DNA of 21,416 nt from a virus. Below, piece by piece: positions 2,962 to 7,407 of the stretch. Every line of letters starts with the position of its first letter. Positions within the stretch are counted from its first letter, which is position 1. A program made the translations under genes and the position numbers. A model generated the notes under the pieces. That model searched no databases. It was not told where the DNA came from and worked only from the letters and a program-made list of their open reading frames with translations. The stretch lies in UHGV virus genome UHGV-1738141; one strand, 5' to 3'.

Positions 2962-3135
2962 TAGCGATAATTTTACTCATCATCCTTCACATTTGGCTCT
3001 GTAGACAGGGTGGTGATCACTTCTGGAGTGAATCCAGATTAAATATCTCATTGCTGATGCTTGATATTGAGCATCTTGCGCGCGGTAAGGGGCTGCGTTG
3101 AGATAAGAGCCAGTCATTACAAATACCAGGATTTA

Positions 3136-3158
3136 GCCTCGTATTCGCGGGGCTTTTT
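3136..3158 (+). terminator. Rho-independent terminator downstream of the lysis cassette
   Basis: Stem gcctcg / cggggc (one G-U wobble), loop tattcg, followed by ttttt (3154-3158). Confidence 0.5.
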
Positions 3159-3170
3159 ATTGTCATTACA

Positions 3171-3196
3171 AAAGCCACTCCCTACAGAGTGGCTTT
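3171..3196. terminator. Perfect 9-bp hairpin flanked by A and T tracts (possible bidirectional terminator or regulatory stem-loop)
   Basis: aaagccact (3171-3179) and agtggcttt (3188-3196) are exact reverse complements with an 8-nt loop ccctacag. Confidence 0.35.
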
Positions 3197-3324: not shown

Positions 3325-3675
3325 ATGCCGCCACGAATCCCGAAAGCCTGCCGTGCTCGAGGTTGCCGTAATACCACCACTGACCCGTCAGGCTATTGCG
3401 AAAGCCACAAAAGCGAAGGCTGGAAGCAATACAAACCTGGACAATCCCGTCATCAGCGCGGCTACGGTTCGAAGTGGGACAGTATCCGCGCGCGTGTCCT
3501 GAAGCGTGACAAAGGCCTGTGTCAGTTATGTCTGCGTTCTGGTGTGGTGCGTGAGGCGAAAACTGTTGACCACATCATCCCTAAAGCGCATGGCGGCACT
3601 GATGCTGACAGTAATCTGCAGAGTCTGTGCTGGCCGTGTCATAAGGCGAAGACGGCCCGTGAACGGTTAAAGTGA
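3325..3675 (+). CDS. HNH endonuclease (terminase-associated type)
   Basis: N-terminal Cys cluster (C..C...C), HNH-type motif DHIIPKAHGG...N, C-terminal CWPCH zinc ligands. Located immediately upstream of the small terminase gene as in HK97-like cos phages. Confidence 0.85.
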   Translation: MPPRIPKACRARGCRNTTTDPSGYCESHKSEGWKQYKPGQSRHQRGYGSKWDSIRARVLKRDKGLCQLCLRSGVVREAKTVDHIIPKAHGGTDADSNLQSLCWPCHKAKTARERLK

Positions 3676-3701
3676 TAATAATTCTCAACTGTCTGAGGGG
3701 A

Positions 3702-3760
3702 GGGGCGGGTCAAATCCCTGTGACCTGACGTCTTCCGGACTGCCCGCCCCATCGTTTTTT
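3702..3760. promoter_or_regulatory. GC-rich inverted repeat plus T-run between HNH and small terminase; candidate cos/terminase recognition region or terminator
   Basis: ggggcggg (3702-3709) and cccgcccc (3743-3750) are exact reverse complements separated by 33 nt, followed by ttttttt (3754-3760) and preceded by gggg/agggg runs. Confidence 0.3.
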
Positions 3761-3800
3761 TATACCCGCGAAAAATGAAATTTAACCAGGAGTGCCGCAT

Positions 3801-4286
3801 ATGGCTGGAACGGCGGGGCGTTCCGGGCGTCGCCCCAAGCCAACGGCGCGCAAGGCGCTGGCCGGAAACCCCGGCAAGCGAGCCCTGAATAAAGATGAAC
3901 CTGTTTTTACGCCCATCAAAGGTGTTGAGCCACCGGAGTGGTTCGCTGAAGAAGATCTCCCTCTCGCCACGATCATGTGGCAACTGACAACCAAAGAACT
4001 CTGCGGTCAGGGCCTGCTGTGCGTGACTGACCTGGCGGTACTTGAGCGGTGGTGTGTGGCCTATGAATTCTGGCGACGTGCCGTGAAAAATATTGCCAGA
4101 CAGGGCAACACCATCACCGGTGCAATGGGCGGCATGGTCAAAAATCCGGAGCTGACCGCCAAAAAAGAACAGGAGTCCGAGATGAGCAGCACGGGGGCAA
4201 TGCTCGGACTCGACCCCAGCAGCCGCCAGCGTCTGATTGGCCTGGCGGGGAAGAAGAAAGCCACTAACCCGTTTCTGACAATCTGA
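3801..4286 (+). CDS. Terminase small subunit (P27-family-like)
   Basis: Start at ATG 3801 with aggag RBS at 3788-3792; track ORF begins at GTG 3792. Basic N-terminus [13 protein letters not shown] and position immediately upstream of the large terminase. Confidence 0.75.
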
Positions 4287-4299
4287 AAATCATCGAATC

Positions 4300-6033
4300 A
4301 TGAGCCGGAAATCTTACCCCAACGTAAATGCAGCCAATCAGTATGCCCGTGATGTCGTGCGCGGAAAGATTGTGGCCTGCCAGTTTGTGATTCAGGCCTG
4401 CCAGCGCCATCTTGATGACCTGATGGCGGAAAAAAGTAAGTCGTTTCGTTACCGCTTCGACAAGGACCTGGCTGAACGGGCCGCCAAATTTATTCAGCTG
4501 TTGCCGCATACCAAGGGTGAGTGGGCATTCAAACGGATGCCCATCACGCTGGAGCCGTGGCAGCTCTTTGTGATCTGCTGTGCGTTTGGCTGGGTCAATA
4601 AAGGTACCCGGCTGCGCCGCTTCCGGGAGGTGTATACCGAAATCCCCCGTAAGAACGGCAAATCGGCAATCTCTGCCGGTGTCGCCCTGTATTGTTTTGC
4701 CTGTGATAACGAGTTTGGCGCGGAAGTGTATTCCGGTGCCACGACAGAGAAACAGGCGTGGGAAGTCTTTCGCCCGGCGCGACTGATGTGTAAACGCACA
4801 CCCATGCTGACGGAAGCGTTCGGGATTGAGGTTAACGCCTCAAACATGAACCGTCCGGAGGATGGCGCGCGGTTTGAACCGCTGATCGGTAACCCCGGTG
4901 ATGGTTCATCACCCCACTGTGCGGTGGTGGATGAATATCACGAGCACGCCACCGATGCGCTTTATACCACGATGCTTACCGGGATGGGGGCGCGACGTCA
5001 GCCACTGATGTGGGCCATCACCACCGCCGGGTACAACATTGAGGGGCCGTGCTACGACAAGCGGCGGGAAGTTATCGAGATGCTCAACGGTTCGGTACCC
5101 AACGATGAACTGTTCGGGATCATCTATACCGTTGACGAAGGCGATGACTGGACCGACCCGCAGGTGCTGGAAAAAGCCAACCCGAATATTGGCGTGTCGG
5201 TTTATCGCGAATTTTTGTTAAGTCAGCAGCAGCGTGCGAAAAATAACGCCCGTCTGGCAAACGTCTTTAAAACAAAACACCTCAATATCTGGGTGTCGGC
5301 GCGTTCGGCGTATTTCAACCTGGTGAGCTGGCAGAGCTGCGAGGATAAATCACTGACCCTTGAGCAGTTCGAGGGGCAGCCGTGCATTCTGGCCTTTGAC
5401 CTGGCGCGTAAGCTGGATATGAACAGCATGGCGCGACTTTATACCCGCGAGATTGACGGTAAAACGCATTACTACAGTGTGGCCCCGCGTTTCTGGGTAC
5501 CGTATGACACGGTGTACAGCGTCGAGAAAAATGAAGATCGCCGGACAGCCGAACGCTTTCAGAAATGGGTGGAAATGGGCGTTCTGACTGTTACCGCTGG
5601 TGCGGAGGTGGATTATCGCTACATCCTCGAGGAGGCCAAAGCGGCGAACAAAATCAGCCCGGTCAGTGAGTCACCCATCGACCCCTTCGGGGCGACCGGG
5701 CTGTCGCATGACCTTGCTGATGAAGACCTGAACCCCATCACCATCATTCAGAACTACACCAACATGTCCGATCCGATGAAAGAGCTGGAAGCGGCGATTG
5801 AATCGGGGCGCTTTCATCATGACGGCAATCCCATCATGACCTGGTGTATCGGCAACGTGGTCGGCAAAACCATTCCGGGTAACGATGATGTGGTGAAGCC
5901 TGTCAAGGAGCAGGCGGAAAACAAAATCGATGGTGCGGTTGCACTGATTATGGCGATCGGTCGGGCAATGCTCAAAGAACCCGACGATTTCCTCTCATCT
6001 CTTGATCCGGACGATGTTCTCTTAATTCTATGA
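4300..6033 (+). CDS. Terminase large subunit (ATPase + nuclease)
   Basis: 577 aa with deviant Walker A-like [10 protein letters not shown], acidic motifs (VVDEYHE) and a C-terminal nuclease-like region; canonical position between small terminase and portal. Confidence 0.9.
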
Positions 6034-6191
6034 AATCACTAATTGCTGATGTTATCGGGTTGGCTGGTTTTGGCCTGCTTACGTGCGGGTTTTACCTGCA
6101 GTTTGGTATGGCTCCGGCTCTGATGCTGTCCGGCGGTTTACTGCTGGTGGGCGCACTGGCTATGGCCAGAAGGGGGACGCGTGCTGCTTGA
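6030..6191 (+). CDS. Small (53 aa) hydrophobic ORF, putative two-TM membrane protein, absent from the ORF track
   Basis: My translation: [56 protein letters not shown] overlaps the terminase stop (ATGA) and the 3' end overlaps the portal start. Coding status unproven. Confidence 0.35.
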
Positions 6192-7407
6192 TGCTCTGTT
6201 CAGAAGTAAATCACTGGAGAATCCTTCCACCCCGATAACCGGGGATGCCGTTGATACTGATGGGCTGTTCCGGGCAGACGTTTATGTCAGTCCTGAAACT
6301 GCGATGAAACTGGCTGCGGTGTATTCCTGTATCTATGTCCTGTCTTCCAGCCTTGCCCAGATGCCGTTGCATGTTATGCGCAGGCACAATGGGAAGGTTG
6401 AGCCCGCACGCGATCATCCGGCGTTTTATCTGGTTCATGATGAGCCCAATACCTGGCAAACCAGTTACAAATGGCGCGAACTGAAGCAACGTCACATCCT
6501 TGGCTGGGGGAATGGGTATACCTGGGTGAAACGTAATCGTCGCGGTGAAGTCATATCCCTGGATTGCTGTATGCCGTGGGAAACGACGCTGATGAATACT
6601 GGTGGCCGATACACCTACGGTTTGTACAACGAATATGGGGCGTTTGCGATCAGCCTCGACGATATGATCCACATCCGTGCGCTGGGTAATAATCAGAAGA
6701 TGGGGCTGAGTCCGATTATGCAACATGCCGAAACAATAGGCATGGGGATGAGCGGTCAGAAATACACAGAAAGCTTCTTCAGCGGTAATGCCCGTCCGGC
6801 GGGGATAGTATCCGTTAAAAGCGGACTCAATAAGGACAGCTGGGGCTGGCTTAAAGATCAGTGGCAGAAGGCATCGCAGGCGTTACGCAGCCAGGAAAAC
6901 AAAACCATGCTGCTGCCAGCCGATCTGGATTACAAGGCACTGACTGTGTCGCCAGTTGACGCTCAGATCATTGACATGATGAAACTGAACCGTTCAATGA
7001 TTGCCGGTATTTTCAATATTCCTGCGCACATGATTAATGACCTCGAAAAAGCCACCTTCTCCAATATTTCTGCGCAGGCGATTCAGTTTGTCCGCTACAC
7101 GATGATGCCGTGGGTGACGAACTGGGAGCAGGAGCTTAACCGTCGCTTGTTTACCCGCGCTGAGTTAGCCGCCGGGTATTACGTCAGGTTCAATCTGACG
7201 GGGCTTTTACGCGGAACTCCGCAGGAGCGCGCGCAATTCTATCACTTCGCTATTACCGATGGATGGATGAGCCGTAATGAGGCCCGCGCATTCGAGGATA
7301 TGAATCCGGTTGAAGGGCTGGATGAGATGCTGGTAAGCGTGAATGCTGCTAACCCGGCAGGAGATTTTAAGCCCCCAAAAAAAGATGAGGGAAAAACCAA
7401 TGAATGA
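6181..7407 (+). CDS. Portal protein, HK97 family
   Basis: 408 aa; N-terminal region with AVYSCIYVLSSSLAQMPLHV resembles the conserved HK97-type portal N-terminus. Probable GTG start with agaaggggga RBS; lies between terminase and prohead protease. Confidence 0.85.
   Translation: MLLDALFRSKSLENPSTPITGDAVDTDGLFRADVYVSPETAMKLAAVYSCIYVLSSSLAQMPLHVMRRHNGKVEPARDHPAFYLVHDEPNTWQTSYKWRELKQRHILGWGNGYTWVKRNRRGEVISLDCCMPWETTLMNTGGRYTYGLYNEYGAFAISLDDMIHIRALGNNQKMGLSPIMQHAETIGMGMSGQKYTESFFSGNARPAGIVSVKSGLNKDSWGWLKDQWQKASQALRSQENKTMLLPADLDYKALTVSPVDAQIIDMMKLNRSMIAGIFNIPAHMINDLEKATFSNISAQAIQFVRYTMMPWVTNWEQELNRRLFTRAELAAGYYVRFNLTGLLRGTPQERAQFYHFAITDGWMSRNEARAFEDMNPVEGLDEMLVSVNAANPAGDFKPPKKDEGKTNE

Follow-up and report, generated by a model that had tools for sequence, protein, structure and literature searches.

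A very probable HK97-type cos site between the HNH endonuclease and small terminase genes of an SfV/SfI/phiP27-type prophage

The window analysed here is a stretch of 21,416 nucleotides of the virus genome UHGV-1738141, and the region of interest lies between a gene for an HNH endonuclease and the gene of the small terminase (Table 1). The genes are arranged in the order lysis genes, HNH, terS, terL and portal, followed by an HK97-like protease and capsid genes, and the reading frames of HNH, terS, terL, portal, protease, capsid and tail proteins are full length. Upstream of the HNH gene, Pfam assigned a DNA methylase, a holin and Rz; the reading frame 2021-2497, located between holin and Rz, had no Pfam match, and SfV annotates a lysin at its place. 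The methylase gene (553-1605; N6_N4_Mtase, E 1.3e-42) immediately precedes the holin reading frame (1586-2017), which it overlaps, as listed, by 20 nt; it is situated at the start of the late lysis cassette. A search of the window for known RNA families and tRNAs gave no hits.

Table 1. Features of the locus and their sequence conservation in 77 relatives
Feature	Position	Strand	Bits per column	Evidence or remark
HNH endonuclease gene	3325..3675	+		Pfam HNH PF01844, E 1.1e-16; stop codon ends 3675
Upstream flank	3676-3694		0.21
G-box GGGGAGGGGCGGG then TCAAATC(CCTG)	3697..3720	+	1.23 (3697-3716)	conservation; right-end side of cut
Spacer, sequence variable, length fixed	3721..3736	.	0.59 (3717-3736)
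Cut site (cosN equivalent), GGAC then TGCCCGCCCC	3737..3750	.	1.05	homology to mapped ends
10-nt cohesive end TGCCCGCCCC, predicted top-strand 3' extension at right genome end	3741..3750	+		identical to SfI gap
T-run plus A, left-end side of cos	3755..3762	+	1.44	conservation
Downstream box ACCCGCGAAAAATGAAATTTAA, candidate TerS site (cosB equivalent)	3764..3785 (+14..+35)	+	1.56	conservation, HK97 parallel
Sequence before RBS	3786-3795		0.30
Small terminase gene terS, P27 family	3801..4286	+		PF05119 (Terminase_4), E 2.6e-21
Large terminase gene terL, HK97 gp2-like	4300..6033	+		Pfam TerL_ATPase and TerL_nuclease
Portal gene	6181-7407			Pfam

The packaging proteins were compared with those of HK97. 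The HNH protein is 38% identical to HK97 gp74 over 65 amino acids (E 5e-11) and matches PDB entry 5h0m, a chain deposited as 'HNH endonuclease' (E 3.9e-13); judged by these similarities, it is a packaging accessory nuclease and a homologue of gp74. TerL is 26% identical to HK97 gp2 over 520 columns (E 7e-30), and its sole PDB match is 6z6d (E 3.6e-25), which we take to be the crystal structure of HK97 TerL. For TerS, whose listed homologues all carry PF05119, no relation to HK97 gp1 was detected by BLASTP, Pfam, PDB phmmer, or hhalign with a profile of 74 sequences. A usable AlphaFold model of TerS was obtained only from an alignment of 34 sequences, the single-sequence model (pLDDT 40) being unusable, and the modelled match to the fold of HK97 TerS is only suggestive. 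An initial sequence-only reading of the region had relied on the analogy with HK97-like phages; this analogy holds for TerL and HNH and was not found to extend to the P27-family TerS. As the start of terS we took ATG 3801, which is preceded by the ribosome binding site aggag (3788-3792). The ORF tool lists GTG 3792 as the longest possible start; the records of SfV and SfI annotate the ATG instead, and for this reason it is regarded as the true start.

According to its sequence, the window is a temperate prophage of the SfV/SfI/phiP27 type. A megablast search of phage records gave about 97% identity to the Shigella phages SfV, SfI, SfII and SfIV; several E. coli and Salmonella phages matched at the same level. 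Over positions 3734-3860 the window is identical to the inducible phage SfV, and between the G-run and terS (3695-3800) SfI differs from it at two bases only, 3717 and 3751. Of 5426 complete E. coli genomes, 1166 (21%) contain a 241-bp core of the region. Two records found in these comparisons deserve a comment. The 5.6-kb contig JAEWTL010000102.1, labelled 'MAG: Bacillota bacterium', encodes a TerS that is 99% identical to that of the window and contains the cos block in identical form; most likely this is a mis-binned enterobacterial prophage contig. In the small terminase annotated for Edwardsiella phage EPP-1, about 37 residues are exactly duplicated within the protein, and the record ends with ...tgcccgcctc and restarts with ccccaattttt, slightly offset from the homologous junction; this may be an artefact of assembly or linearisation.

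The sequence-only reading had proposed that the genome ends lie between the HNH and small terminase genes, with termini within 3690-3770, and had pointed to three features, all of which were recovered as described by inspection of the sequence and by a repeat finder. The first is the G-run gaggggaggggcggg (3695-3709), which with 12 G in 15 positions is the G-richest 15-mer of the window. The second is a perfect 8-bp inverted repeat, consisting of the left arm ggggcggg (3702-3709) and the right arm cccgcccc (3743-3750), which are 100% complementary and separated by a 33-nt spacer. The third is a run of seven T (3755-3761), separated from the right arm by four bases (ATCG).

The proposed location of the ends agrees with termini that have been mapped in related phages. 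Run-off sequencing of SfI virion DNA, compared with the prophage, revealed a 10-nt gap, 5'-TGCCCGCCCC-3' (PMC3636060), which is identical to positions 3741-3750 of the window; eight of these ten bases form the right arm of the inverted repeat. In the SfI record, the last bases are ...ggacTGCCCGCCCC and the first are GTCGTTTTTTTATACCCGCG...; the former sequence is that of positions 3737-3750 and fits the family pattern of GGAC plus a cohesive end (T/C)GCCCGCCCC. At the homologous place, the record of phiP27 (AJ298298, feature 21806-21815) annotates CGCCCGCCCC as 'cos-site'. The Burkholderia phage phi644-2 has ten-base 3' extensions, with 5'-CGCCCGCTTC-3' on the right end (PMC2920897), and HK97 has 10-nt 3' overhangs (PMC9410871). 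The sequence-only reading had suggested a comparison with cos sites of the HK97 family; in this comparison, the ends of HK97 align in register with the window junction 3750|3751, and the records of SfI, phi644-2 and HK97 all begin and end at the junction homologous to it. By homology, the bottom strand would be nicked at 3740|3741 and the top strand at 3750|3751, and both positions fall within the proposed 3690-3770.

This arrangement of nicks predicts that the cohesive ends of the window element are 10-nt 3' extensions. For the SfI group, 3' polarity is our reading of the run-off 'gap' together with homology and is not explicit in the SfI paper: run-off sequencing from both ends left a gap, whereas 5' extensions would have given an overlap. 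The published 3' extensions of phi644-2 (PMC2920897) and HK97 (PMC9410871) lead to the same polarity. Note that cut positions and polarity have been shown experimentally by others in both close and distant relatives, whereas we infer cutting in the window's own prophage from its sequence. Taken as a whole, positions 3697-3785 can be assigned with high confidence to an HK97-type, HNH-assisted cos site with 3' overhangs, belonging to a phage of the SfV/SfI/phiP27 type. A cos site is already known for this phage family, and the window contains another copy of it.

An alternative, which we consider improbable, is that the cos-homologous sequence belongs to a cryptic prophage which has lost the ability to package DNA, and that the site is now inert. 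Nothing specific speaks for this; the region occurs in 21% of complete E. coli genomes, and many of these genomes must contain decayed prophages. The intact reading frames from HNH to the tail genes speak against a relic, as does the cos block itself, which is identical to that of inducible SfV and only two bases off SfI.

For an analysis of conservation, a TerS alignment was used to fetch 80 loci from contigs representing one genome per species; an earlier scan of viral contigs had given only copies that were 99-100% identical and thus of no use for conservation tests. The 80 loci stem from Enterobacterales, including Xenorhabdus, Photorhabdus, Gilliamella and Morganella, and from Pseudomonas, Burkholderia and Pandoraea. 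Their TerS sequences are between 99% and 50% identical to that of the window, and they contain 77 distinct upstream regions, which align almost without gaps; the spacer varies by an indel of at most 1 nt. The conserved blocks reach 1.05-1.56 bits per column, compared to 0.2-0.6 for flanks and spacer. Invariant in all 77 relatives are G3704, G3705, A3713, A3714, A3739 and the CCGCG at 3766-3770; C3740, G3742 and C3743 are conserved to at least 90%. It is the conservation of these blocks, and not the inverted repeat, that constitutes the beyond-chance signal at the locus.

The loci of Photorhabdus, Xenorhabdus, Providencia and Morganella differ in layout: The whole cos block is located 60-90 nt farther from the start of terS, and within Xenorhabdus the segment inserted between cos and terS is itself conserved (e.g. 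...tttcactgtttttgagcacgggaggtgctg). Because the block is shifted in these loci, the cos site seems to behave as a unit independent of the translation signals of terS. In the loci of Phytopseudomonas and Pseudomonas, the cut-site motif ACCGCCCG occurs about 10 nt farther upstream and is followed by ACGACGGGGGGAG; for this variant layout the cut position is not transferable by alignment.

On the left-end side of the cut, the T-run and the ACCCGCGAAA box occupy positions 3755-3773, before terS. Within the T-run, T3757-3760 and A3762 are at least 90% conserved, and they are kept in relatives with a broken inverted repeat. Judged by this pattern, the T-run (3755-3762) belongs to the left-end side of cos and does not represent the tail of a terminator. 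The downstream box is the best conserved block of the locus; its invariant CCGCG is retained from Shigella to Pseudomonas and Burkholderia. The box consists of ACCCGCG followed by a 15-bp A/T tract and thereby resembles, in both position and make-up (a C/G anchor, then an A/T tract), the minimal site of HK97 TerS, which comprises 15 bp at +15..+29, CTAACCCGATTTTTT (PMC11331095). By this parallel, the downstream box is probably the binding site of the P27-family TerS.

[quoted passage not shown] In the window, SfV, phiP27, HK97 and phi467 alike, the first base of TCAAATC lies exactly 41 nt before the top-strand cut. In Pseudomonas phage D3, a G-box precedes the genome end by 40 nt, and in Rhizobium phage 16-3 one precedes the annotated cohesive end by 38 nt. 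It lies at approximately 39677-39700 in HK97 (AF069529), 56375-56395 in D3 (NC_002484) and 60141-60165 in 16-3 (NC_011103), and has in these phages the pattern GGGG.GGGG..GG plus a TCAAA-like sequence. While the distance from the cut remains within 38-41 nt, that to the HNH gene varies: it is about 20 nt in the window and 63 nt in 16-3, but reaches at least 125 nt in D3 and about 265 nt in HK97.

The phages sharing the G-box have unrelated small terminases, and their hosts belong to three proteobacterial classes. The sequence 3' of the cut differs with the type of TerS: P27-type phages have ACCCGCGAAA..., HK97 and 16-3 have GCTAAC plus an A/T tract, and phi467 and D3 have other sequences; the G-box is common to all of these. 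Because the box occurs with all of these TerS types, its reader would be a component that the phages share. Sequence comparison suggests that this reader is probably the large terminase and/or HNH, or else that the G-box signals termination in the manner of cosQ.

A more general interpretation is tentative, and we hold it somewhat less likely to be right than wrong: the G-box (GGGG-A/T-GGGG-N-GG, then TCAAATC or TCRAAAG) may represent an as yet uncharacterised third subsite that HK97-type 3'-cos sites have in general, which is read by the shared large terminase and/or HNH and which either positions the second nick or signals termination like lambda cosQ. Its scope would comprise phages of Enterobacterales, Pseudomonas, Burkholderia and Rhizobium with small terminases of the P27, HK97/16-3, phi467 and D3 types. 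If it were true, the perfect inverted repeat in the lineage of the window would be a side effect. A description of the G-box was found neither in the HK97 packaging papers examined nor by a literature search with the string, although older papers may hold one; it is possibly the sole new point of this analysis.

A group of E. coli siphophages, phi467 and others named vB_EcoS-..., shows about 80% DNA identity to the window over the 3' end of the HNH gene and the G-box (window 3620-3720; phi467 locus 701-798). The likeness is lost from about position 3720 onwards; TerS is 24% identical and the cut site is HK97-like (ACCGCCGCCTGA). From these alignments, a mosaic junction seems to lie inside the cos spacer of this group.

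The sequence-only reading had also regarded the inverted repeat as a feature of cos, a view that the following tests did not sustain. A perfect 8-bp inverted repeat with a spacer of 3-60 nt occurred in 364 of 5000 dinucleotide-preserving shuffles of 3676-3800 (7%), and the whole window contains about 20 such repeats (32 overlapping 8-mer seeds, compared to 20 +/- 5.6 seeds in shuffles). Folded as RNA, the region gave z = -0.64, its fold being equalled or bettered by 50 of 200 shuffles; folded as DNA, it gave z = -1.5. In the 77 relatives, the eight proposed pairs show standard pairing in 67.1% of the cells, compared to 69.1% for re-dealt partners; 496 of 500 partner shuffles pair at least as well, and slid partners reach 57-66%. 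The central C:G, which is the sole non-G:C and the only informative position of the repeat, is kept in 19 of the 77 relatives. RNAalifold proposed no consensus pairs (0) for the relatives, and their alignment contains no compensatory changes in support of a stem. As a functional unit, the inverted repeat was rejected on the grounds of its frequency in shuffles and the absent covariation.

It has been considered that the repeat might nevertheless be a working part of cos, bound by a symmetric dimer or extruded as a cruciform that guides nicking. It is perfect in the window, SfV, SfI and phiP27, its right arm lies within the cohesive end, and the z-score of the DNA fold would be in line with such a role. 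We nonetheless rate this explanation as very unlikely: besides the high frequency in shuffled sequences, the arms vary independently of each other. The right arm cccgcccc occurs together with the left arms gggggagg, ggggggga and ggggggta in loci of Lonsdalea, Acerihabitans and Pantoea, and the left arm ggggcggg with the right arm ccgccgcc in Enterobacter soli and phi467. Citrobacter prophages naturally carry A in place of C3706 in the left arm. Moreover, HK97, D3 and 16-3 possess the G-box and the cut site, and yet their arms are not complementary. Each arm thus forms part of a different element, one of the G-box and one of the cut site, which are conserved separately. The repeat is incidental and lineage-specific, arising where a G-rich sequence happens to face a C-rich one; it does not form a working hairpin.

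The fallback of the sequence-only reading, a Rho-independent terminator with a long loop that would end transcription of HNH or of the late operon before terS, can be dismissed as hardly credible: although the perfect GC-rich 8-bp stem and the T7 starting 4 nt after it are reminiscent of one, the loop has 33 nt (3-8 nt are typical), a terminator scan did not call the site, the U-run is detached from the stem by the 4-nt gap, the RNA fold is ordinary, pairing among relatives falls below that of shuffled partners with no RNAalifold consensus, the T-run is retained in relatives with a broken stem, expression of terS together with the late operon is required, and real terminator-like hairpins exist upstream. 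The latter are located at 3135-3154 and 3171-3196, between Rz and the HNH gene. One of the pair has an 8-bp stem and a 4-nt loop, followed by TTTTTATTG; in the other, a perfect 10-bp stem closes a 6-nt loop. As a pair, these tandem hairpins gave an RNA z = -5.17, which was attained by 0 of 200 shuffles, and it is they that are the genuine terminator-type structures near the locus.

The hexamer GGGGCG/CGCCCC was considered as a repeated terminase-binding word and rejected, as an overall enrichment is absent (14 copies in the window, 16 expected). Four of the 14 copies cluster within the 135 bp of 3702-3836, and two of these four lie in the codons for the invariant basic N-terminus of TerS. This terminus recalls the DNA-inserting N-terminal arm of HK97 TerS.

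In order to place the site among known systems, it was compared with five groups of phages. The cos sites of SfI, SfV, SfII and SfIV (PMC3636060, PMC3851460) share with the window the gene order, the identical 10-nt end, a P27-family TerS and a myovirus-type tail. Nothing of substance differs, and the sequence from the G-run to terS is near identical; the published descriptions name the 10-nt end only, not the G-box or the downstream box. The phage phiP27 has CGCCCGCCCC at the homologous place, the G-box GGGGAGGGGCGGGTCAAATCCCTG, the ACCCGCGAAA box and the same TerS family. In contrast to the window, the first base of its overhang is C instead of T, its spacer has a different sequence, and the A/T part of its downstream box deviates (ATTAAAAATTT). 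The Burkholderia phages phiE125 and phi644-2 (PMC2920897) possess a P27-family TerS that is about 50% identical and the same downstream box (GCCCGCGAAAAATGAAATTTAA), and the cut junction of phi644-2, whose polarity was determined experimentally, is homologous to that of the window. They differ by a variant of the G-box, GGGGAGGGGGGTGAAAAAGTCT, and by a spacer with its own palindrome; moreover, they are siphoviruses of a different host.

HK97 resembles the window in its homologous TerL and HNH proteins and in the common register of G-box and TCAAATC. Its C-rich overhang CGCCGCCAAA is, like TGCCCGCCCC in the window, preceded by AC, and both phages have an ACCCG motif and an A/T tract about 15-30 bp inside the left end. 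The sequence of the downstream box and the distance between HNH gene and G-box are different, and HK97 lacks the inverted repeat. The cos site of lambda is likewise tripartite (cosQ-cosN-cosB): an upstream element is located on the last-packaged end, where cosQ takes the position of the G-box; next comes the nick site, and the site of the small terminase is found between the cut and the gene of that protein. However, lambda has 12-nt 5' overhangs, a Nu1/gpA terminase that acts without an HNH partner, and IHF-assisted binding to R sites, and its cos shows no sequence similarity to the window. A lambda-type cos was rejected for the window, as the homologous ends are 10-nt 3' extensions, TerS belongs to PF05119 and TerL is HK97-like.

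A mechanism can be proposed on the basis of these comparisons. For HK97 it has been reported that gp74 stimulates cleavage by TerL at cos, that TerS reads a C:G pair at +21 and the adjoining deformable A-tract, and that TerS is a roadblock which switches the motor to nuclease mode (PMC9410871, PMC10359639, PMC11331095). In the phage studied here, the terminase, helped by the HNH protein encoded upstream, would introduce two staggered nicks into concatemeric DNA at the positions given above, leaving 10-nt 3' cohesive ends TGCCCGCCCC. The site has three conserved parts at fixed spacing, namely the G-box (3697-3720), the C-rich cut site (3737-3750), and the T-run with ACCCGCGAAAAATGAAATTTAA (3755-3785). 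After cutting, the G-box would stay on the right end, which is packaged last, and the T-run and downstream box on the left end, which is packaged first. In analogy to HK97, the P27-family TerS would bind the downstream box, recruiting TerL at initiation and stalling it at termination. The G-box is probably read by a shared component, TerL and/or HNH, or serves to signal termination as cosQ does.

More than ten years have passed since the cos site of this phage family was mapped, and the copy in the window is one of more than 1000 in sequenced E. coli. For annotation, such prophages can be assigned the exact genome ends 3740|3741 and 3750|3751 by transfer. Models of HK97 packaging explain recognition and termination by TerS at +15..+29; the conserved upstream G-box could matter there. 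The G-box is conserved across four types of small terminase; as it lies inside the fragment -312..+472 used by the HK97 groups, its role is directly testable.
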